A stretch of 64,000 bases of DNA from the NCBI GenBank assembly GCA_003707115.1, contig PPNB01000011.1, forward strand, positions 1-64,000. Direction: 5' to 3'. Position 1 is the stretch's first letter, and each line of letters opens with the position of its first letter. The DNA is from Tortispora ganteri. Taxonomy: Eukaryota. A program made the translations under genes and the position numbers. Below, piece by piece: positions 3,942-63,754 of this stretch. Below the pieces are notes generated by a model. It was given only the letters and a program-made list of their open reading frames with translations, ran no database searches and was not told where the DNA came from.

Positions 3942-4505
3942 TAGTGTTTTTTAGGTATCAATTTAAAAAAATATTTGATCTTTTAATTCATACCTAGCAT
4001 ATCATGCGTTTATCGTAGTACCTCGCATTTATTAGATGCAAATTTGTTTTTTAATATTAAAGCGAGTTAATAATATTTCCGTCTAGTAAGTAATGTAACG
4101 TGACATACGAGAAAGCTCAACCTTGTTGTGATCGGTTGAATAAAGTATAGTAACACTAACTAATTGTTCACTCTTTTAATAAAGAGTTTTGTTATATACA
4201 GTTTATATCACTTTCTTAAGGATATTCGCATAAGAAAGAGCCACCAAAAATAGACAAACCCAAATGTGTTATATTTTTAGATTAACTTTCACAACCGACC
4301 AATGCGAACAAGCTATACTTATAAGTCATATAGATGACTTATAATAAACACGGTAAATAACACCATTGATCTATTCTAAAAATAGAAAACAGTAACTATT
4401 TTCTGCTGTAGATGTCGTAAAGAATGTCCTCTATTGCCAATATAAAATGATGTCCCGCAAGCCTTTACAGAACGAGAATAAACTGACTCATACATTTCTG
4501 CCACT

Positions 4506-5645
4506 ATGTTGAGCACTGTAACTGTAGTAGAGACATTTCTTTGCGAACCTCCAGTAACAACAACAACAGTTTATAGGAGGTCGTATAGTTCATATACAGG
4601 AGTAGCCACTGTATATAATAATTATTGCATTTCAGATATTAAATATGTGGAAGATGCTTATTGCTTTGCGTGCACGTCGACTGTGGTCACTTACGTCCCC
4701 AAAGGTCCCTTAATTCGTGGTTCCAACACGTATATATGGGGGTACCATGAAGAAGTAACTGCGTCTATCTCCGTTGATACAAATATCACAGTAGAGCGCC
4801 CTATAATCATCACTCACACTGAAATCACTCCAGCCACTATAAGCCGTGCGACTGCGACTATTACCGATGCAAGTGCTGACCTTGCTTCAGCGGTGACTTT
4901 TTTGGCATCTAGTCAACTCGATAGTACAGTTGTATCCGTTCTAGACTATACTAGCAGTGATGATGATAAATTATTATCCGCTGCGACAATAGTAACGTCC
5001 GATAGTTCAGAACAAACACCAGCAAATTTCGAGAGCAACAATGAGACTGAGCAAACCTTACAGAATAATGAGGGAGTGCCGGGTGCCAGTAGTTCTAAGC
5101 AGCCTGAGATGAGCTCTACCGCAGCAGGTTTAGTTAGCATCACTTATCGTTCTGGAGAAGAAATGAAGGAATCCATATCTAGTTCTGAAAGCAGCGACAG
5201 GAGCGGATTGCCGACTATCACAGACTATAATGAGATCTTTTCTTCAGAACCAACTGTAGGATCTGCAGTTGAATTGAGTAACTTAAGCGGTGAATCATCT
5301 ACCACTTCAGAAACCGTTTCTGTTTGGTCAAATGAACCAGCGAGTAGCTTCATAAGTGATTCTAACTCAAATGGGGTAGCATCTACTACATCAGAAAGCA
5401 TCTCTTTTGGTTCAATTGGGTCAGCAAGCAGTACCAAAGATGGTTCGAGTGGCAGACCAATGATCACTGATGTGATCATTCCTATTGGTACAGATTTAGC
5501 AGGTGGAGGAGGAGGAGGAGGAGGAGGAGGAGAAGGAATAATTGTTCTAGATCCTAATGCACCACAAATTGACGATAACCAAGTGGCTATAAGTGTATCA
5601 GGAGTGGAAACTTTTATTTATGCTGAGACGACAAGGATAACATAG
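4506..5645 (+). CDS. Hypothetical Ser/Thr-rich protein, paralog of 2619..3941
   Basis: 379-aa ORF sharing MLSTVT..LC.PP.TTTTVY, YC.S, YC.ACT.TV.TYVP.GPL and TY.WG motifs; (GGA)9 poly-Gly tract at 5505-5531. Confidence 0.75.
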   Translation: MLSTVTVVETFLCEPPVTTTTVYRRSYSSYTGVATVYNNYCISDIKYVEDAYCFACTSTVVTYVPKGPLIRGSNTYIWGYHEEVTASISVDTNITVERPIIITHTEITPATISRATATITDASADLASAVTFLASSQLDSTVVSVLDYTSSDDDKLLSAATIVTSDSSEQTPANFESNNETEQTLQNNEGVPGASSSKQPEMSSTAAGLVSITYRSGEEMKESISSSESSDRSGLPTITDYNEIFSSEPTVGSAVELSNLSGESSTTSETVSVWSNEPASSFISDSNSNGVASTTSESISFGSIGSASSTKDGSSGRPMITDVIIPIGTDLAGGGGGGGGGGEGIIVLDPNAPQIDDNQVAISVSGVETFIYAETTRIT

Positions 5646-27333: not shown

Positions 27334-27449
27334 GCTCCAGTGGCGCAGTGGTTTAGCGCTTCGTGCTTATAGCCGTACAACGACGTCTATGCTGATGTCA
27401 CGGTCGTGTGAGAACGCGACGGTCGTGGGTTCGACCCCCTCCTGGAGCA
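27334..27449 (+). tRNA. tRNA-Ile(UAU) with a 42-nt intron (27372-27413)
   Basis: Acceptor stem GCTCCAG/CTGGAGC; A box TGGCGCAGTGG; anticodon arm TCGTG-CTTATA^A-CGCGA; B box GGTTCGACCC; downstream T-run terminator. Confidence 0.95.
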
Positions 27450-29945: not shown

Positions 29946-30548
29946 TCAGGATTCTGTGATTTTACTGAGAATGAGCGTCCATAGAATACCAACGATGCCA
30001 GCAGCGGGTACTATGAGATGTTGTGGGATAAATTGGAATGAAACAAAGGAGAAGAGCGGCCATATGATGTATGCGTTAGTGAGCGTTGTACGCAGCTTCG
30101 AGCGGACTGTGTAGAGGATATTGTGGTTTTCCCATAGCGCACTGAAGGACAGAAACATGACATTAAACACAGGCGTACCTATACACTGGTCTATTATGAC
30201 ACGCAGGAAGATGCTGGGAATGAGCGGTGTGATGAGGTCGTACCAGTACTTGTTGACGATGCCGTTAACTATACCCCATGTGTGGAACTTCAGCGTACGT
30301 GCGGGCATGAACTTGTGGACAAATATTAATTGGTTCAACAGCTGCGATATAGCGGCCAGAATCGACGATACAAGCGCTGTTACGACGTAAGGGTATGCTT
30401 GGTGAAGGGTTTGGAAGTTGACATATATTGCGAATATCAAACCACATTCTATGAGTAAGAATAAGACGATAATGGAATGCTCAGTCTTCCGTTTACCAGA
30501 AGGTTTCCATTCAGATTTACTAGGACCTTTCTCTGGGTCATCGGCCAT
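29946..30548 (-). CDS. Mpv17/PMP22 family membrane protein
   Basis: RVIIDQ...TP, IWP....FQFIP, ..W...LS pattern; four to five hydrophobic helices. Confidence 0.8.
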   Translation of the reverse strand: MADDPEKGPSKSEWKPSGKRKTEHSIIVLFLLIECGLIFAIYVNFQTLHQAYPYVVTALVSSILAAISQLLNQLIFVHKFMPARTLKFHTWGIVNGIVNKYWYDLITPLIPSIFLRVIIDQCIGTPVFNVMFLSFSALWENHNILYTVRSKLRTTLTNAYIIWPLFSFVSFQFIPQHLIVPAAGIVGILWTLILSKITES

Positions 30549-31373
30549 GTGTTTTGTGAATAATGTATAATAATAGAGGGAGGGTAAAGGACTGTTATCA
30601 CCGTCTTAAGCCTTGTGTAGGTGGGAGAGGTCAAGTGACAGATGACCTTGCTAGCCTTAAGAGTTTGCGAGATATGGTCTTCTACGCCCCAAATGCGTAC
30701 TGAGGTTTGTTTCTCAGTTAAATAAAAGACAAAAAGGTGCTTGAAAGCTAGCATTATAGTAATTGCAGCTAGAACTGCGGGTGCTGTACAGGTACCATTA
30801 TTTAGCGACAATACACTACTGAAGATCGGTACATCCGCGTCCCAGTTCACAATCATCGTTCTACAAACGCATCACTAAATATTTAATAGCTTTATATTAG
30901 TAGTAATAGTACATTAAAATGCATGTTTTGAAGCAAGATCAGCAATTACAAGTCGTTGTGGTGACTGATAAAGAGCTCAAAAGTGAACTAACTATCAAAA
31001 ACTGGGGCAAACTTTAAGCGCGTTGCCAGGCAACCTTAATGTTGGGCTAACGCCGGTCTAGAGTATATCGCCCACCATTCATCTAACACCAATCCCCATC
31101 TTTCCCCCCCTTCTCCTACCGTCGTGTGGTAATATTAATAAGTACTGGGTCGTTTTCTACTAAGAAGATAAAATTAGACACAAGGGCACCTACGAATAGT
31201 TGGTTGTTTACATCCATAGAAATTTGGAAAAGTATTTTTGACGCGCACAATTTGAAACTACTGGGAAATAACAAGGTCTATTTGCCGCTCCTGATCTGAC
31301 CAGTTCGAAAAGCTACAAGAGTTTCCTTTTACCAACAACCTGATAAACTAAGAATTATAGCCACAATCAAACC

Positions 31374-38021: not shown

Positions 38022-39014
38022 TCATTTTAAAGCTTCCATGGCCTTCTCGATTTCACCTTTGGAACCAAGCCAAACAGGCGTACGCTGATGAATGGTAGTA
38101 GGTACAATTTCCAGCATGCGTCTCTTACCGTCAGTAGCCAAGCCACCAGCCTGTTCCATTAAGAAAGCCATTGGAAATCCTTCGTAAAGAATTCTAAGCT
38201 TACCGTTTTTGCTTTTAGAGTCAGATGGGTACGCAAACATGCCTCCGTACAGAATAGTTCGGTGAACATCGGCTACCATAGAACCAATATAACGGGCTGA
38301 ATATGGCTTAGAACCATCCTTCGGAAATTTCAACGATTCAAAATAGGCCCTTGTTTTTTCATCCCAGTACAGAGAGTTTCCCTCATTCACTGAATAGATG
38401 GAACGTCTGTTAGGGATCTTCATATTCGGATGGGTAAGAATGAATTCACCTAGTGAATTGTCCAAAGTGAAACCATTAACACCAGATCCAGTGGTCAAAA
38501 CTAAATTAGCAGAAGCACCATACATTGTATAGCCGGCAGCCACCATTTCAGTTCCGGGTCGCAGCACGTCGTCAATAGTGCCTTCGGATCCTTCTTTTAC
38601 TCTATAAATGCCAAAAATTGTACCAACAGATACACCGGCATCGAGATTACTTGAACCATCGATTGGGTCACATACGACACAATATTTTCCATTTCCAGGA
38701 AAGAAAATTGGATCCTCTTGTTCTTCGGAAACAACAATTTTGACGTTCTTACTGTCTCTCATAGCGTTAACGAAAATTTCGTCACCAATCACGTCTAGTT
38801 TTTTCTGATCATCACCAGTTGAGTTGGAAGCACCCGCCAGACCCATCAAGTTAATAAGAGTTGCACGACGAATGTTGTATGCAATCGTTTTGAAGGCGAA
38901 CTGAAGCGAGTTTAATAATAACGTGAACTCGCCAGACGCTCCAGGTACTTTACTCTGCTCGGCCAAGATGAAGCGAGAAAGCGTTACAATATCAGTTTCT
39001 ACTAGTCCAGACAT
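38022..39014 (-). CDS. FBP1: Fructose-1,6-bisphosphatase
   Basis: GDDQKKLDV, DPIDGSSN, RYIGSMVADVHRT, GKLRILYE motifs. Confidence 0.98.
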   Translation of the reverse strand: MSGLVETDIVTLSRFILAEQSKVPGASGEFTLLLNSLQFAFKTIAYNIRRATLINLMGLAGASNSTGDDQKKLDVIGDEIFVNAMRDSKNVKIVVSEEQEDPIFFPGNGKYCVVCDPIDGSSNLDAGVSVGTIFGIYRVKEGSEGTIDDVLRPGTEMVAAGYTMYGASANLVLTTGSGVNGFTLDNSLGEFILTHPNMKIPNRRSIYSVNEGNSLYWDEKTRAYFESLKFPKDGSKPYSARYIGSMVADVHRTILYGGMFAYPSDSKSKNGKLRILYEGFPMAFLMEQAGGLATDGKRRMLEIVPTTIHQRTPVWLGSKGEIEKAMEALK

Positions 39015-39096
39015 TGTGTTGAATTAATATGCTTGTGTCGTGTGAATATCTCCTACTCAAAGCCAAATATGAAACTGGCTATTAGTGTATGAGTTC

Positions 39097-39107
39097 GAAA
39101 TCTGGGG
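39097..39107. promoter_or_regulatory. Candidate Mig1/CreA glucose-repression site upstream of FBP1
   Basis: gaaatCTGGGG matches SYGGGG with an AT-rich 5' flank, ~90 bp upstream of the FBP1 ATG. Confidence 0.4.
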
Positions 39108-39249
39108 TAGCGAAAGATCGTGTTCACCTTTTAAGTGGGCAGATTAGGGTCGGTCAATCTCGGGACAAGGTGTGAGGGGGACACCGGTAACTTAGCGGAA
39201 AAGCGGAACTAACAGGATTGTCTCATAGAAACTAAAGGAGAATTTCTGT

Positions 39250-39257
39250 TTAGGGCT
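39250..39257. promoter_or_regulatory. Candidate Tbf1 site in the snoRNA host promoter (second site TTAGGGTC at 39144)
   Basis: TTAGGGCT is the reverse complement of AGCCCTAA, the aRCCCTaa motif typical of yeast snoRNA promoters. Confidence 0.45.
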
Positions 39258-39421
39258 TTTCGAGCCAATTTTTAGGTCTACAAGGAGATTCAAAGCAACG
39301 GCGCGCCTGCTTCCATGGGAGACAGGCATACACATTTGAGCCTAGCATTCGATCCTAAAATTTCGGTACAAACACAAGGATATGGAACTGGTATGTGTAC
39401 TGTACATAACTTGATGCCAGA

Positions 39422-39510
39422 ATCGAAGATGACAAGCATAAAAATTTCAAACTAGAGTTTATGAAGTTATTTAATAACGCTCTTGATTTAATTTGCTCGT
39501 GACTGAAGAA
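39422..39510 (+). ncRNA. snR78: Box C/D snoRNA snR78 (LSU rRNA Um2421 in yeast numbering)
   Basis: Variant C box AAGATGA 39426; guide TCAAACTAGAGT 39447-39458 complementary to LSU ACUCUAGUUUGA; D' ATGA; D box CTGA 39503. Confidence 0.8.
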
Positions 39511-39639
39511 TCTGTTTCTGCCTAGTTATTTTGTATGCGCTTAGCGTATCATCATGAAGAATTTTCTTTGCTAACATACATTTATAGAATTGAATTATTT
39601 GCAACACAGGGTACGTCTTGAAAACATGAAGCGAGAGAT

Positions 39640-39720
39640 TAGGATGATGATTGATACAAAACAAAGTTGGAATTACCGACTGAATTCTTTTGTTGAGAAA
39701 ATTGCGGCACTTCTGACTTA
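39640..39720 (+). ncRNA. snR77: Box C/D snoRNA snR77 (SSU rRNA Um578)
   Basis: C box ATGATGA 39644; guide AGTTGGAATTACCG 39665-39678 complementary to 18S CGGUAAUUCCAGCU; D' CTGA; D box CTGA 39713; flanking stem. Confidence 0.9.
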
Positions 39721-39860
39721 TCTTTCACTTTTTTTTTGATATCGCATTGTATGCATAACTAACTATCCAGAACAATATAGCCGATGTATCGCTGGCGAGC
39801 ATTTTGTGTTATGTTTCTTACATTTGTATGAATTGGTAAGTGAAATGACTTATTGTGATT

Positions 39861-39974
39861 GAGAATGATTACTTTTTTCAATTGATCGAGGACGATTTAT
39901 AGCACTGGGCACTGAATTTTGATTTGATTGACAATGCTTTAATGCAGGCCTCAGAAACCTGTGTGACTGAGATC
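39861..39974 (+). ncRNA. snR76: Box C/D snoRNA snR76 (LSU rRNA Cm2197)
   Basis: C box ATGATTA 39865; guide AGCACTGGGCA 39901-39911 complementary to LSU UGCCCAGUGCU; D' CTGA; D box CTGA 39967. Confidence 0.85.
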
Positions 39975-40090
39975 AAGAAACTTTTTATTTCTATTTATGA
40001 ATCTTTTTTCTAACAAATTGCTCAGCTTATAGGTAAGTTATAACTGGAACAATGAGGCAAGTTTGTGTGTATGTGTTTTGCGCATACACA

Positions 40091-40180
40091 TTATTTGATG
40101 ATTTCCTAGATGACGAGTCGGACTGGGTTTTCCACTGGCGACAACTAATTTTTTTTAACCATTCATGCATAACTGAATAA
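40091..40180 (+). ncRNA. snR75: Box C/D snoRNA snR75 (LSU rRNA Gm2288)
   Basis: C box TTGATGA; TAGATGACGAG 40107-40117 and CCATTCATGC 40159-40168 pair with neighbouring LSU segments CUCGUCAUCUA and GCAUGAAUGG; D box CTGA 40173. Confidence 0.9.
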
Positions 40181-40319
40181 CTGCCTCTATAGTTTTATCG
40201 GAAACTATTGCTAACCATGTCTAGTTAATGGATGTTCCTTACTTGAATTAACAAGTAGGTATATTATGTTAAGTTACAGTGTCAGAATTTTTGATACTGT
40301 AATCTTTCTTTCTTTCTTT

Positions 40320-40397
40320 GGACAGGATGATATTTTCATTAAAGACAAGCATATGTCTGAAGGTACATGTGTTGATATTATAAGAATGTCTGAGCCT
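40320..40397 (+). ncRNA. snR74: Box C/D snoRNA snR74 (SSU rRNA Am28)
   Basis: C box AGGATGA 40324; guide AGACAAGCATATG 40343-40355 complementary to 18S CAUAUGCUUGUCU; D' CTGA; D box CTGA 40390. Confidence 0.9.
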
Positions 40398-40502
40398 GCG
40401 ATTGAGATCCTTTGATCGGAATTAAGAACTAACAAAAATGAAGTTTATATGGTATGTATTTATATGGATGGCGGGTTTGTCTGCATGCATATATTATTGT
40501 TG

Positions 40503-40585
40503 TTTTATGATGATTTATTCTACTCACGACGGTCAACCGAACTTCATTGACGAGAATGCCTATGACAGGGCTTTGATCTGAACAG
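40503..40585 (+). ncRNA. snR73: Box C/D snoRNA snR73 (LSU rRNA Cm2959)
   Basis: C box ATGATGA 40507; guide CTCACGACGGTC 40523-40534 complementary to LSU GACCGUCGUGAG; D' CCGA; D box CTGA 40578; terminal stem. Confidence 0.9.
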
Positions 40586-40700
40586 CAATTTGCTAATGCT
40601 GAGATATATAGTATTGAGGTTTTTGTACTAACTGACAGTTTTAGTTTCTTACTAAATTTATTAATAATTATATAATTAAAGAAGAATTTTAATTTATTTC

Positions 40701-41456
40701 TTAATGAGACTTTGATTTCTTAGTTTTTATAGATTTTTTTGATTTTTTGGACTTCTTTTGGATTCCAGAATATTTGTTTTCCAGTTTAGATATGAGACTA
40801 TCAAATCTATGAGCCTGGCGTTTCATTATTATTGACTTCAGATTATCTTCACCTTTTGATTTATCTATTCCAAGTTCTTTTGCAAGAGATTTAGCTTCAT
40901 TAGCTTCTTTTAGTGCCTTTTTCTTGCGGCTCTTCTTTTTCTTTTTGGACTCATTGATATACATGTCGTATGCCAAGACTTCTTCTGATTCTATGGCGCC
41001 GTCAATAATTTCACAAAATCTGTTATAATCATCGAGAATATCTGAATGTAGCACATTCTCAAAAACGAAGTCCATGTCGCCTTCTGATACTACGTAGAAG
41101 TGGATCACGTCTCTTCGCTCTTCTCCCGAACTGCGGTACTGATCGCGATCTTGTTCAATCATTTCAGCAGTGATAGGTTCACTAAACATGCTCTTAAAAA
41201 GTTCAGCCCAGTCAAAATCATCATTTATAGCCTGTGACTCCTCAATGCTTCCAGTAAGGTCGTATGTCTTACGTCGCTGTTCATCGCTCAGCACGGCGTA
41301 CGCGAGCGCAATCTCTTGAAACTTCACATGTGCTTCAGCTGCTTGATGAGCTGGAACTTTATCTGGATGGTGTTGTAATGCTTTGCGTCTATATGCGCCT
41401 TTGATTTCAGCAGTCGTCGCATTTGTGTGCACTTCGAGTACTTCATATGGATTCAT
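40701..41456 (-). CDS. J-domain protein, DNAJC9-like
   Basis: N-terminal J domain with HPDK; Y..S.EE..D, EA.EA..LAKELG, FD..I..LE.KY; Lys-rich tail. Confidence 0.85.
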   Translation of the reverse strand: MNPYEVLEVHTNATTAEIKGAYRRKALQHHPDKVPAHQAAEAHVKFQEIALAYAVLSDEQRRKTYDLTGSIEESQAINDDFDWAELFKSMFSEPITAEMIEQDRDQYRSSGEERRDVIHFYVVSEGDMDFVFENVLHSDILDDYNRFCEIIDGAIESEEVLAYDMYINESKKKKKSRKKKALKEANEAKSLAKELGIDKSKGEDNLKSIIMKRQAHRFDSLISKLENKYSGIQKKSKKSKKSIKTKKSKSH

Positions 41457-54350: not shown

Positions 54351-55646
54351 TTATCTGTCACCTGTTTGAAATAATGCATCTGCAATATTTAAAGCTGATG
54401 AAGAGGACTCTGCATTCCCGACATGTTCTGCGAATGCCGATGTTACCTGCGGGTCGACCGGTATAGGTTGGCCAGTTTCAGCAAATCTTTCGCTAGTATA
54501 TTGATTCCCATGAATTGCACGAGAAATGGCTGCAACTGCTACGTGATCAGGAAGCTGTGGCCGAGTTTGATCAGTGCCGTCAGGATATGGAAATGATGAG
54601 GTTGGTCTGCCTATACCTTGAATTTCATCATGACCAACTAAAGACGATTTGCGTGCAGAGAACTTGTTAGTTGCCGACCTACATACATGACATGAGCGAA
54701 CTACTGACCGTGCTGTGGCTTTTATCTGCGGCCAATGATAAAGTTCTGCTGTGAGTCCTGTTAGTTTGTTGACACCAGCATGATCTGATGAATGTAATGC
54801 TCGGACTATATTAAGGCGATCAACCTCTGATTCGATTACTTGTTTGTTTCCTAGAAGTAAATTGCCTTCAGGAGAGATCCTATATTTTGCAGCAGATGCT
54901 CTTATTCTTGATTTCTCCACGCGATCTGTACCCGGGGGGTAGATTCCATGCTGGATGTACATTTTAATATGAGAAAACCGAGAGTTTGAATTCAAAGCTA
55001 AGTTTTCTGGGGTTTCTATACCATATGACCAAATATCACAAGTTTCTTTTGACGGTAAAACGGCTCCATCTATAATGAGATTGCAACGGGCGAACTTCAA
55101 TGATGCAGCTAGCTTGGAGGCAGCAGTGTTTACAGATAGTACCGGGTCCATATACACATAGTATATATTAGCCATTCTTGCATAAGATAAAGCTGTCTTT
55201 CCAAGAACTTTTCCAATACCTTGATTGCGATAGTTCTGGTTAACTAGAATTGTGAGATCTCCGATTGTTGATGCTGGACCTTTGTACTTATGCCTAACAA
55301 AAGCGACGCCCAATATTCTGTCTGGTGTTTGGTCAGTAGTTATTTCTGAGTTGCGCTCTATTTTCGCAGGATTTTGGAGTGAATAATCTAATGAATCCTT
55401 GAGATCGAGTTCATCAATTGAATCCAGTGGGCCTTTTAGAGCTACTATAGCTACACCAGTTGACATAAACATATCCTTGAAAGACTGTAATGTTATAGGA
55501 CTGTCAAATGGCAAGCTCCCAGGATTAGAAAGTATCTCATAATTTAAATGTATACATGCGAACTTATTAAGAGTTTCATTTGAAGAATATGGAAGCACAG
55601 TGAAAGGGAAGGGATTAGTTAGCAGTATGGGCTGCATTTTTGACAT
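54351..55646 (-). CDS. SPT10: GNAT acetyltransferase plus His2-Cys2 zinc-finger protein, Spt10-like
   Basis: Motif A YRNQGIGKVLG, then YP...DR.EKSRIR and H...H.G.NK.....YHW..I......CHVC. Confidence 0.75.
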   Translation of the reverse strand: MSKMQPILLTNPFPFTVLPYSSNETLNKFACIHLNYEILSNPGSLPFDSPITLQSFKDMFMSTGVAIVALKGPLDSIDELDLKDSLDYSLQNPAKIERNSEITTDQTPDRILGVAFVRHKYKGPASTIGDLTILVNQNYRNQGIGKVLGKTALSYARMANIYYVYMDPVLSVNTAASKLAASLKFARCNLIIDGAVLPSKETCDIWSYGIETPENLALNSNSRFSHIKMYIQHGIYPPGTDRVEKSRIRASAAKYRISPEGNLLLGNKQVIESEVDRLNIVRALHSSDHAGVNKLTGLTAELYHWPQIKATARSVVRSCHVCRSATNKFSARKSSLVGHDEIQGIGRPTSSFPYPDGTDQTRPQLPDHVAVAAISRAIHGNQYTSERFAETGQPIPVDPQVTSAFAEHVGNAESSSSALNIADALFQTGDR

Positions 55647-62329: not shown

Positions 62330-62560
62330 AAAAAAAAGAACTGCGAAGTTAACGAAGGAGTAAGGAGCCAGAGAAAAAATAGTAAGTAAAAGTCTAATAG
62401 GATTTGACAGTTGCAACGGTCACATAATGTTCACAGTATATGCCTATTTCCGGGTAACTTAGCATTTAACCTTTTGCTACTTTTTTCTCTTTAGGAGATC
62501 TCAGGTTGTCTGAGAACGAAAGAAGCGTTTTAGATCTACCGATTTCATAGATCAAGTAGA

Positions 62561-63754
62561 ATGAAAGATCTTGTTGTTTTAGGAGGCTCTTCTCATCCTC
62601 AATTGACGAAGGCTATATGTTCAATATTGAACATTAATGAATCAGAAATGAGTTTGAGCAAGTTCAGCAACGGCGAGACTTCTGTCACAATCAAGGATTC
62701 TGTACGTGACAAGGATGTCTATGTGATTCAATCTGGATGTGGCAGTGTAAATGACAACCTAATGGAATTGTTAATTGCTGTTTCTGCTCTTAAAACTGCA
62801 TCTGCAAGCAAAGTCACAGCTGTTTTACCATTGTTCCCCTACTCCAGACAACCGGACGCCCCATACCGCAAAGTTGGCGCCCCACAACCGACTGCCAGTA
62901 ACAGAGCTGGACTGTACACATTTGATAGTGTTCCTTCTTCGCCTAGGCCGCAAAAATCATTATCATCGCTACAGTCTGATGCTGCACGTAAGCTCTTCTC
63001 TAAGGAACTACGAGACAAGCTGAAATTAGCTGAATCTGTAGATGAAGATGAAGACCCTGATGTCGTCACTGAGACAAATACAGGCTATAGACAATGGGTG
63101 GCACAGGCGGGAACACTTGTTGCCGATTTGCTGGCATGCGCAGGAACAGATCACATTATCACCATGGACTTACACGACCCTCAGTTCCAAGGATTCTTTG
63201 ATATCCCGGTAGACAATCTGTACGGTAAGCCACTGATTCAACGCTACATCACCAACTCAGTTGTCAATTATCAAGACGCCGTAATTGTATCTCCGGATGC
63301 AGGTGGTGCCAAAAGAGCTTCAGTAATTGCTGATGCGCTAGGCATGGATCTTGCCCTGATCCACAAAGAGAGAAAGTCTACAAAGCTCCCCGGCAAGGCC
63401 GCTCCGCTAATGCTCGTCGGAAGCGTCCATGACAGAGTCGCACTCATGATAGACGATCTCATTGATACCTCTGCGACTGTCACAAGAGCTGCCAGACTTT
63501 TGAAATTAAATGGAGCTACTAAAGTGTATTGCTTAGCTACGCACGGTGTATTCTCTGGCGACGCCATTGACCGTGTTCTGCAGTCTGACATTGACAAAGT
63601 GATAATAACGAATTCTGTGCCCCAGCAAAACACAAAAGCTCGTTTAGGCGATCGTCTAGAGGTGGTAGACATATCACCTATATTCGCAGAAGCAATCAGA
63701 CGAATTCACAATGGAGAATCTGTGTCTATGTTGTTCGATTTCAGTTCTATGTGA
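62561..63754 (+). CDS. PRS5: Ribose-phosphate pyrophosphokinase with an internal insertion (Prs5-type)
   Basis: PRPP synthetase motifs (FPYSRQ, ITMDLHD, VSPDAGG, ATHG); ~75-aa insertion after YSRQPD ending in QWVAQAGTL. Confidence 0.85.
   Translation: MKDLVVLGGSSHPQLTKAICSILNINESEMSLSKFSNGETSVTIKDSVRDKDVYVIQSGCGSVNDNLMELLIAVSALKTASASKVTAVLPLFPYSRQPDAPYRKVGAPQPTASNRAGLYTFDSVPSSPRPQKSLSSLQSDAARKLFSKELRDKLKLAESVDEDEDPDVVTETNTGYRQWVAQAGTLVADLLACAGTDHIITMDLHDPQFQGFFDIPVDNLYGKPLIQRYITNSVVNYQDAVIVSPDAGGAKRASVIADALGMDLALIHKERKSTKLPGKAAPLMLVGSVHDRVALMIDDLIDTSATVTRAARLLKLNGATKVYCLATHGVFSGDAIDRVLQSDIDKVIITNSVPQQNTKARLGDRLEVVDISPIFAEAIRRIHNGESVSMLFDFSSM

Follow-up and report, generated by a model that had tools for sequence, protein, structure and literature searches.

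What, if anything, is encoded in the ~1.7-kb gap that ORF-based gene calling leaves empty between the FBPase gene (FBP1, 38022-39014, minus strand) and the DnaJ/DNAJC9-HTH gene (40701-41456, minus strand) of Tortispora ganteri? In the ORF list, 45 ORFs of at least 120 amino acids cover the window (the whole stretch of DNA analysed, 64 kb in length), and the two genes are the left and right borders of a stretch free of ORFs. A sequence-only reading had claimed that ORF-based annotation misses here a non-coding transcript with six introns, each carrying one box C/D snoRNA. The gap is indeed passed over by ORF calling, and the one-snoRNA-per-intron reading is supported by the present analysis. 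The locus is, very probably, the budding-yeast orthologue of the fungal snoRNA cluster I, that is, a non-coding host from whose introns the snoRNAs are released. The host decodes CTG as Leu and is therefore placed outside the CTG-Ser clade.

Six box C/D snoRNAs on one strand

The gap holds six box C/D snoRNAs, which together span 39422-40583 on the plus strand:

39422-39506, plus strand: snR78-type box C/D snoRNA in intron 1; C box AGATGA at 39427, D' box ATGA at 39461, D box CTGA at 39503
39641-39718, plus strand: snR77-type snoRNA (Rfam snoZ7/snoR77) in intron 2; C box ATGATGA at 39644, D' box CTGA at 39680, D box CTGA at 39713
39884-39974, plus strand: snR76-type snoRNA in intron 3; degenerate C box AGGACGA, D' box CTGA at 39912, D box CTGA at 39967
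40093-40178, plus strand: snR75-type snoRNA in intron 4; C box TGATGA at 40096, degenerate D' box CGGA at 40119, D box CTGA at 40173
40322-40393, plus strand: snR74-type snoRNA (SNORD27/U27-type) in intron 5; C box AGGATGA, D' box CTGA at 40357, D box CTGA at 40390
40503-40583, plus strand: snR73-type snoRNA in intron 6; C box ATGATGA at 40507, degenerate D' box CCGA at 40537, D box CTGA at 40578

The identities, the strand and the order snR78-77-76-75-74-73, one snoRNA per intron and the same succession as in the Saccharomyces cerevisiae cluster, had been proposed by the sequence-only reading and are borne out by Rfam matches. Four of the six reach the gathering threshold of their model, namely snR75 (74.3 bits, threshold 40), snR76 (70.2 bits, threshold 55), snR73 (49.0 bits, threshold 37) and snoZ7/snoR77 (43.2 bits, threshold 43). 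The remaining two stay below it: snR78 scores 36.3 bits against 48 (E 0.0018 in 1.8 kb, 0.064 in 64 kb) and SNORD27, the model of the snR74 type, 33.3 bits against 52 (E 0.002 in 1.8 kb, 0.073 in 64 kb). A search of the 64-kb window for snR72 gave no match at E ≤ 0.5.

The D box is CTGA in all six snoRNAs. The C box is a perfect ATGATGA in snR77 and snR73 and TGATGA in snR75 (read from the sequence), while those of snR78, snR76 and snR74 carry one or two changes and keep both GA pairs. The snR76-type snoRNA has a GATC/GATC terminal stem. C and D boxes had been announced for six introns of 160-200 nt; the boxes are present in 6/6 and the intron lengths are 160-197 nt.

Guides and predicted rRNA targets

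Eukaryotic rDNA from metagenome contigs, most of it probably not fungal, stood in for the rRNA of T. ganteri itself as the target. The 106 rDNA loci used were fetched with a pattern built from two guide complements, that of the snR76 D' guide among them, and a full 18S-5.8S-LSU unit by Rfam (locus L008) served as the reference. Searches for rDNA elsewhere gave two matches in contigs of prokaryote genomes (one in a bacterial rRNA operon, the other without an rRNA call) and none in viral contigs. The methylated residue was predicted by the rule of the fifth nucleotide upstream of the D' box.

Against this metagenome rDNA, each D' guide has a perfect rRNA complement of 11-13 nt, with up to 14 pairs when a G-U is counted, close to the 11-14 nt given by the sequence-only reading. 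The snR78 guide (39447-39458) has a 12-nt perfect complement, with a predicted 2'-O-methylated U at the 25S-U2421 position; the complement occurs in three of the ~94 long-enough rDNA loci, at a fixed offset of +225/226 from the snR76 site. Most other long-enough loci have a variant form of the snR78 site, and the three with the perfect 12-mer presumably carry the fungal form. The 11-nt snR77 guide (39668-39678) points to 18S U568 in L008, the S. cerevisiae site being Um578, and its complement is present in 17 of the ~28 long-enough loci. The snR76 guide (39901-39911) points to LSU C2197, with its complement at 2193-2203 of the L008 LSU; the presence of this complement in the loci is by construction, because it was used as a fetch motif, but its position is not. 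For snR75 the guide (40107-40117) predicts LSU G2288 in L008, and the complement, which was outside the fetch pattern, is found in 39 of the 106 loci, 36 times at an offset of +92; a D-side element of the same snoRNA (40159-40168) pairs 19 nt downstream, at 2307-2316. The snR74 guide (40343-40355) has a 13-nt perfect complement that predicts 18S A28 in L008 (complement in 10 of ~26 long-enough loci), and the snR73 guide (40523-40534) a 12-nt perfect complement that predicts LSU C2957 in L008 (25 of ~48), the S. cerevisiae site being Cm2959. The complements of all guides outside the fetch pattern (snR75 D', snR73, snR77, snR74 and snR78) sit at fixed offsets.

The predicted targets thus lie on, or a few nucleotides from, six published S. 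cerevisiae sites: Am28 (snR74), Um578 (snR77), Cm2197 (snR76), Gm2288 (snR75), Um2421 (snR78) and Cm2959 (snR73) (PMC5199042). Each snoRNA would direct one 2'-O-methylation by the guide 5' of its D' box, the sites being 25S-U2421, 18S-U578, 25S-C2197, 25S-G2288, 18S-A28 and 25S-C2959 for snR78, snR77, snR76, snR75, snR74 and snR73, respectively. Five matches of at least 11 nt are found in L008 (one of them by construction), whereas shuffled snoRNAs average 0.42 and never exceed 3 in 300 shuffles; this comparison is biased because L008 was chosen for having the most guide matches. With antisense rRNA as the control there was no match of at least 11 nt, nor was there any for the 821 nt of the region that lie between and around the snoRNAs.

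On the D side, the guides of the six snoRNAs have no convincing rRNA target in L008 or L026, and a match of the snR73 D side at 18S 1068 (11 pairs, two of them G-U) is probably due to chance. We also considered snR78 as a double guide which had taken over the function of snR72, and rejected it: by the fifth-nucleotide rule its D side cannot target an A, and it has no convincing rRNA match.

Splice signals and the proposed release of the snoRNAs

Each snoRNA is flanked by a putative 5' splice site, branch point and 3' splice site. The six sets that the sequence-only reading had placed in the gap are present on the plus strand, with a donor-to-donor spacing of 193-226 nt, and delimit the following predicted features:

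39144-39149 and 39250-39255, plus strand: possible promoter region, two TTAGGG motifs, 247 and 141 nt 5' of the first donor
39391-39587, plus strand: intron 1, 197 nt; donor GTATGT, branch point TGCTAAC, 3' end TAG
39588-39610, plus strand: exon 2, 23 nt
39611-39770, plus strand: intron 2, 160 nt; donor GTACGT, branch point AACTAAC, 3' end CAG
39771-39835, plus strand: exon 3, 65 nt
39836-40025, plus strand: intron 3, 190 nt; donor GTAAGT, branch point TTCTAAC, 3' end CAG
40026-40032, plus strand: exon 4, 7 nt (CTTATAG), or 0 nt with the downstream acceptor
40033-40224, plus strand: intron 4, 192 nt; donor GTAAGT, branch point TGCTAAC, 3' end TAG
40225-40258, plus strand: exon 5, 34 nt
40259-40443, plus strand: intron 5, 185 nt; non-consensus donor GTATAT, branch point AACTAAC, 3' end AAG
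40444-40451, plus strand: exon 6, 8 nt
40452-40644, plus strand: intron 6, 193 nt; donor GTATGT, branch point TACTAAC, 3' end TAG
40645-40700, plus strand: beginning of the last exon; AT-rich tail, convergent with the 3' end of the DnaJ gene (read from the sequence)

A strict scan (GTA[ACT]GT, NCTAAC, AG) finds five non-overlapping sets in a region of 1321 nt where 0.146 are expected (Poisson P of at least five ~5e-7), the chance rate, obtained from Markov shuffles, being 7.05 ± 2.8 sets per 64 kb per strand. The motif CTAAC occurs six times on the plus strand of the region and not once on the minus strand, and the branch point is NCTAAC in all six introns. Elsewhere in the window the scan gives six sets on the plus strand and seven on the minus strand, no more than chance. 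Predicted introns are densely grouped nowhere else in the window, and the claim that the neighbouring genes are intronless is, with 45 ORFs covering the window, roughly right. One of the other sets (41720-41509, minus strand) was considered as a 5' intron of the DnaJ gene and discarded, the J domain beginning at residue 2 of the ORF. The picture of six clean introns holds for five consensus sets; the sixth, that of intron 5 around snR74, was missed by the strict scan, its donor being non-consensus, and two of the exons measure 7 and 8 nt.

The geometry is uniform: the donor lies 30-63 nt upstream of the snoRNA, the D box 36-68 nt upstream of branch A, and branch A 8-13 nt upstream of the acceptor, in line with the distances of 41-60 nt between snoRNA and acceptor in Neurospora crassa (PMC2780460). 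Several details of the individual introns are worth recording. An alternative acceptor of intron 3, the TAG at 40032, would adjoin the next donor and leave an exon of zero length. In intron 4 a hairpin (40064-40092) buries a cryptic GTATGT at 40069. The GTATAT donor of intron 5 is without the usual G at position 5, an alternative donor (GTTAAG) lies at 40268, a 14-bp hairpin forms inside the intron (40273-40303, -14.6 kcal/mol), and the end of exon 5 pairs with an upstream segment in a further hairpin (40226-40271). A CAG at 40638 in intron 6 is just 7 nt from branch A. The exons of 7 and 8 nt (or zero) leave almost no room between an acceptor and the donor that follows, and neighbouring introns therefore probably have to be removed one after another.

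Upstream of the cluster, two of the 15 TTAGGG motifs counted on both strands of the 64-kb window fall within the 376-nt intergenic stretch; at the scale of the whole window TTAGGG is not enriched. We take TTAGGG to be the Tbf1 site. In S. cerevisiae, Candida albicans and Debaryomyces hansenii, TBF1 is a main factor at snoRNA promoters (PMC4138321), and the pair upstream of the cluster possibly marks the promoter region.

We propose that one RNA polymerase II non-coding transcript crosses the interval from FBP1 to the DnaJ gene, left to right, with seven short exons separated by six introns of 160-197 nt. Each intron, together with its single box C/D snoRNA, would be freed by splicing as a lariat; debranching and exonucleolytic trimming to the assembled C/D snoRNP would then yield mature snoRNAs of ~75-90 nt, and the spliced host RNA, a few hundred nucleotides long, would be a by-product.

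The snR74 unit invites another interpretation, which we consider improbable: five introns are spliced, but the donor of the snR74 unit has decayed to GTATAT and the unit is no longer an intron. The snoRNA would then reside in a long exon 5 (40225-40451) and be freed from the spliced host RNA by an endonuclease and exonucleases, with entry perhaps at the strong hairpins just 5' of snR74, and the cluster would capture an intron on its way to being lost through decay of a splice site. The donor GTATAT, the acceptor AAG and the failure of this set in the strict scan fit such a state, and the spacer 40179-40321, which includes both the 14-bp hairpin and the hairpin that pairs the end of exon 5 with an upstream segment, is unusually structured (z = -3.28). 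Exonic members of intronic clusters are reported for Candida species, Yarrowia lipolytica and N. crassa (PMC5033589 and PMC2780460), and PMC3596301 attributes splice-site degeneration as a route of intron loss to Mitrovich 2010. However, the branch point AACTAAC and the spacing of the snR74 unit resemble what is seen in the other five units, AG|GT at the end of the exon would add pairing with U1, and the hairpins are without the AGNN loop recognised by yeast Rnt1.

It is very unlikely that the whole cluster is an unspliced polycistron in the style of S. cerevisiae, in which the splice-like signals would be relics or chance and RNase III (Rnt1) would cut between the snoRNAs, with Rat1/Xrn1 and the exosome doing the trimming. 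In S. cerevisiae, processing of the orthologous SNR72-78 along this route is proven (Qu et al. 1999, cited in PMC5033589), and T. ganteri, with CTG as Leu, is outside the CTG-Ser clade in which the intronic layout has been studied most. Such a polycistron does not account for five consensus signal sets where 0.146 are expected, nor for the NCTAAC branch points in 6/6, and the Rnt1-type signals are missing: AGNN-capped stems of at least 10 pairs are absent from 39300-40750, while six (plus strand) and four (minus strand) occur elsewhere in the window, and of the five spacers between the snoRNAs, three show no more folding than their shuffles do (z = 1.36, -0.07 and 0.25). Least probable of all is a protein-coding host, for although the longest ORF of the spliced-model RNA (56 codons, ATG at 39315, TAG at 40030-40032) is not interrupted at any of the first three predicted junctions, has its stop in the 7-nt exon and might specify a micropeptide, an open frame so long would arise in ~1/10 cases at such composition (a rough estimate, not computed), the N. 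crassa hosts of the same clusters hold ORFs of 159-267 bp and are regarded as non-coding (PMC2780460), and the exons of such host genes are poorly conserved (PMC3596301).

Known clusters of the same snoRNAs

The intronic layout of this cluster is already published, including tiny or absent internal exons and the loss of snR72. According to Luo et al. 2013 (PMC3596301), Donovan et al. 2016 (PMC5033589) and Canzler et al. 2018 (PMC5824354), all of which cite Mitrovich et al. 2010 for the layout, cluster I is intronic in the Candida clade, Yarrowia, Pezizomycotina and Basidiomycota. It is so in most fungi, EST or RT-PCR having confirmed 83 out of 323 such introns (PMC3596301); according to PMC5033589, RNA-seq of Candida parapsilosis shows that the cluster I introns are spliced individually, and tiny, single-base and zero-length exons are described in such clusters in both papers. 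The background given in the sequence-only reading, Rnt1 cleavage of an unspliced polycistron in S. cerevisiae and an intronic layout in other fungi, matches what these two sources say.

The T. ganteri locus shares with the intronic fungal cluster I its six snoRNA families and their 5'-3' order, short introns with one snoRNA each, a non-coding host and very small internal exons, in a cluster of ~1.25 kb compared to a quoted conserved size of ~1.5 kb. As in Y. lipolytica, Meyerozyma guilliermondii, C. parapsilosis, Pezizomycotina and many Basidiomycetes, snR72 is missing from the cluster's 3' end. In Yarrowia and Pezizomycotina the snR78 snoRNA incorporates the guide of snR72 by fusion, whereas the D-side guide of the snR78 type in T. 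ganteri cannot, by the fifth-nucleotide rule, target an A. All six snoRNAs appear intronic here, whereas five cluster I snoRNAs lie in introns in Candida species and one is exonic in Y. lipolytica (PMC5033589).

The snoRNAs of S. cerevisiae SNR72-78 are orthologous and have the same order, the same D' guides and the same methylation sites. That cluster has seven members, is unspliced and is cut by Rnt1 at intervening stem-loops (Qu et al. 1999, cited in PMC5033589), whereas the T. ganteri cluster has six snoRNAs, splice signals around each of them and no AGNN stems. The animal UHG/GAS5 hosts, as portrayed in PMC3596301 and PMC2780460, are likewise non-coding and multi-intronic, with one box C/D snoRNA per intron, at a fixed distance upstream of the acceptor, and with short, poorly conserved exons. 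Introns and exons are much shorter in T. ganteri, the branch points are of the yeast type, and no link by descent between the host genes is shown.

What the locus adds to the published clusters is small: a CTG-Leu host, six snoRNAs that all appear intronic, two internal exons that measure 7 and 8 nt, and a single degenerate donor. Taken together, a CTG-Leu yeast, six intronic snoRNAs, internal exons so short that they would impose ordered or recursive splicing, and a decaying snR74 donor next to unusually strong hairpins might mean that the change from intron-released to nuclease-released snoRNAs has been caught in the act, which we regard as rather unlikely, though conceivable. If true, the locus would help to locate this change on the yeast tree, at a point nearer to Saccharomyces than is possible from the Candida data.

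The value of the orthology to cluster I lies mainly in annotation, as a gap that appeared empty encodes six guides for conserved rRNA methylations. The locus is also a data point on the reach of the intronic cluster I among CTG-Leu budding yeasts. The possibly decaying donor bears on the published model of intron loss via splice-site decay, and the exons of 7-8 nt bear on ordered or recursive splicing in such clusters.

The snoRNA cluster and its flanks

The cluster lies between the FBPase gene (FBP1) and a J-domain gene. As the sequence-only reading had claimed, this gap is ORF-free, with no ORF of at least 80 amino acids between the two genes. An Rfam search of the window at gathering thresholds, a permissive scan of 39000-40800 and then a whole-window scan (E <= 0.5) gave six box C/D snoRNA matches in this gap, every one of which is enclosed by a donor, branch point and acceptor set on the same strand.

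Features of the interval and its flanks (introns are predicted; donor / branch point / acceptor)
38022-39014 (-), FBPase gene (FBP1); Pfam FBPase N-terminal E 2e-80, C-terminal E 2e-47
39391-39587 (+), intron 1, 197 nt; GTATGT / TGCTAAC / TAG
39422-39502 (+), snR78; permissive Rfam scan, 36.3 bits, cut-off 48, E 0.0018
39611-39770 (+), intron 2, 160 nt; GTACGT / AACTAAC / CAG
39641-39718 (+), snoZ7/snoR77 (snR77 family); Rfam 43.2 bits, cut-off 43
39836-40025 (+), intron 3, 190 nt; GTAAGT / TTCTAAC / CAG
39884-39974 (+), snR76; Rfam 70.2 bits, cut-off 55
40033-40224 (+), intron 4, 192 nt; GTAAGT / TGCTAAC / TAG
40093-40178 (+), snR75; Rfam 74.3 bits, cut-off 40
40259-40443 (+), intron 5, 185 nt; GTATAT / AACTAAC / AAG
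40322-40393 (+), SNORD27 (snR74 type); permissive Rfam scan, 33.3 bits, cut-off 52, E 0.002
40452-40644 (+), intron 6, 193 nt; GTATGT / TACTAAC / TAG
40503-40583 (+), snR73; Rfam 49.0 bits, cut-off 37
40701-41456 (-), J-domain gene with DNAJC9-type HTH domain

The run from snR78 to snR73 proposed earlier was recovered in order on the + strand. The matches to snR77, snR76, snR75 and snR73 reach their cut-offs; those to snR78 and to SNORD27, which we take to be the animal counterpart of snR74, score under theirs (whole-window E 0.064 and 0.073, respectively). The order 78-77-76-75-74-73 is identical to that of the S. cerevisiae cluster, and snR72 was not found in the 64-kb window (Rfam, E <= 0.5).

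Two copies of TTAGGG, the Tbf1 site motif, are present at 39144-39149 and 39250-39255 (+), 247 and 141 nt 5' of the first donor and both within the 376-nt stretch from the FBP1 start codon to that donor. In several yeasts TBF1 is reported to act at snoRNA promoters (PMC4138321). The two copies may serve the snoRNA host gene as Tbf1-type promoter elements, within a stretch that would then be a divergent promoter for this gene and FBP1.

Elsewhere in the window, a weak Rfam match to snoU2_19 at 62528-62604 (-; 34.9 bits, gathering score 39, E 0.36) overlaps the start of a PRPP synthetase ORF and is probably due to chance. A 431-aa ORF (54351-55646, -) matches nothing in Pfam except integrase-type H2C2 zinc fingers and may derive from a retroelement, as a remnant or a domesticated piece.

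Splice signals and processing

All six of the splice-signal sets claimed earlier, with one snoRNA each, were found. A strict scan (GTA(A/C/T)GT, NCTAAC, AG) detects five non-overlapping sets in the 1.3 kb of the cluster against an expectation of 0.146, derived from the 7.05 ± 2.8 sets per strand found in shuffled 64-kb windows; the Poisson chance of at least five is ~5e-7. The region has six copies of CTAAC on its + strand and none on its - strand. The geometry is uniform: the snoRNA begins 30-63 nt after the donor, the branch adenosine lies 36-68 nt after the D box, and the acceptor follows 8-13 nt later. This spacing resembles the snoRNA-to-acceptor distances reported for intronic snoRNAs of N. 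crassa and human (PMC2780460).

The internal exons measure, in order, 23, 65, 7, 34 and 8 nt, and use of the TAG at 40032 as acceptor would reduce the 7-nt exon to zero. Exons of 7 and 8 nt leave almost no distance between an acceptor and the donor that follows it; the introns would therefore probably be removed sequentially. Published accounts of such clusters describe stepwise splicing and internal exons that are small or missing (PMC3596301), as well as single-base and zero-length exons with nested and recursive splicing (PMC5033589). In the spliced model a 56-codon ATG ORF (39315-40032, +) reads through the first three predicted junctions and terminates at the TAG in the 7-nt exon; we regard it as a chance occurrence.

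Intron 5 deviates from the strict set, its donor lacking the usual G at position 5; its acceptor is AAG, and a hairpin at 40226-40271 (-10.2 kcal/mol) pairs the end of exon 5, adjoining the weak donor. These features, together with the exonic members of otherwise intronic clusters that are in print (PMC5033589), would suit a snR74 no longer released by splicing, which we consider improbable.

The S. cerevisiae cluster is, as stated in the sequence-only reading, an unspliced polycistron, in which the stem-loops that separate the snoRNAs are cut by Rnt1 (PMC5033589, citing Qu et al. 1999). Against this route at the present locus, there are no AGNN-capped stems of at least 10 pairs in 39300-40750 (six on the + and four on the - strand of the whole window), three of the five inter-snoRNA spacers fold no better than shuffles, and the hairpins at 40064-40092 (-15.0 kcal/mol) and 40273-40303 (-14.6 kcal/mol), which account for the structure of the other two (z = -2.4 and -3.3), both lack an AGNN loop. 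These + strand hairpins sit in introns 4 and 5, directly upstream of snR75 and snR74, and the former buries a cryptic GTATGT at 40069.

Outside the cluster, a strict set at 4086-4184 (+; GTAAGT, CACTAAC, AG; 99 nt), in the gap 5' of an ORF at 4506-5645, encloses no snoRNA match and may represent either a 5'-UTR intron or a chance set. A tRNA gene at 27334-27449 (+; Rfam 46.9 bits) carries a 43-nt insertion directly after the anticodon loop CUUAUA; its position-based anticodon is UAU (Ile), which makes it an intron-containing tRNA. ARAGORN, with the settings used, listed no tRNA in the window. Two ORFs (29946-30548 and 30449-30856, -) overlap by 100 nt in different frames, the downstream one encoding the final part of an Mpv17/PMP22 domain. 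The pair may be a single gene split by a frameshift or by an atypical intron; a search for a canonical donor between the two found none.

Guides and rRNA targets

The claimed rRNA-complementary guides were found as perfect 11-13 nt complements, in eukaryotic rDNA loci from metagenome contigs rather than in the rDNA of T. ganteri itself. The search pattern combined the sequences complementary to the D' guide of snR76 and to the D-side element of snR75, and it retrieved 106 loci, mostly with a 103-nt gap. The guides outside this pattern also match perfectly, each at a fixed offset from the anchor: snR75 D' (11 nt) in 39 of the 106 loci, 36 of these at +92, and, among loci of sufficient length, snR73 (12 nt) in 25 of ~48, snR77 (11 nt) in 17 of ~28 and snR74 (13 nt) in 10 of ~26. 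The snR78 complement (12 nt) occurs in only 3 of ~94, most having a different form of the site.

In L008, a complete 18S-5.8S-LSU unit among these loci, the residues opposite the fifth position upstream of the D' box are 18S A28 and U568 and LSU C2197, G2288 and C2957; the snR78 site, 227-228 nt past position 2193, corresponds to 2420/2421. The S. cerevisiae sites are Am28 (snR74), Um578 (snR77), Cm2197 (snR76), Gm2288 (snR75), Um2421 (snR78) and Cm2959 (snR73) (PMC5199042), and the shifts of 10 nt (U568/Um578) and 2 nt (C2957/Cm2959) fit differences in rRNA length. L008, picked for having the most matches, has five guide matches of at least 11 nt, one of them by construction; in 300 shuffles of the snoRNAs the count averaged 0.42 and never exceeded 3, and no match came from antisense rRNA or from the 821 nt of non-snoRNA sequence in the region. 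Convincing rRNA targets were not found for the D-side guides in L008 or L026, the two loci examined.

Just past its C box, the snR78-type snoRNA has a 10-nt complement (39431-39440, +) to 18S positions 27-36, the site to which the snR74-type guide is also directed. The Rfam snR78 consensus does not preserve this complement, which is probably a chance match. The bacterial 23S rRNA of a metagenome-assembled genome (L001, 7171-9944) has exact copies of both eukaryotic target motifs, those of snR76 and the snR75 D-side element, 95 nt apart, which indicates that these rRNA segments are deeply conserved.

A known arrangement and its host lineage

The cluster observation is confirmed, and its interpretation as one snoRNA per intron is supported at the sequence level; we infer splicing and methylation at the locus. 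Cluster I, defined as snR78-...-snR72, is intronic in Pezizomycotina, Basidiomycota, Rhizopus and most budding yeasts except S. cerevisiae and close relatives, with 83 of 323 predicted introns verified and the snR72 intron gone from the cluster in most species (PMC3596301); the earlier statement on intronic versions in other fungi agrees with this account. The cluster has been followed back to the Ascomycota root, its order being conserved and its length ~1.5 kb (PMC5824354), and RNA-seq of C. parapsilosis shows that its introns are individually spliced (PMC5033589). Given these reports, the T. ganteri locus is an orthologue of a well-described arrangement, which is already known.

CTG is a common codon, at 16.3 per 1000 codons in 15 genes of the window, and each of the five CTG codons in the FBPase gene falls opposite a Leu of the closest solved FBPase (7ns3 chain Fb). 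The host thus decodes CTG as Leu and lies outside the CTG-Ser clade. Most experimental work on cluster I has been done in that clade. In a lineage that may already be covered in print, the only points that go slightly past published accounts are the non-CTG-Ser host and the apparently intronic position of all six units.
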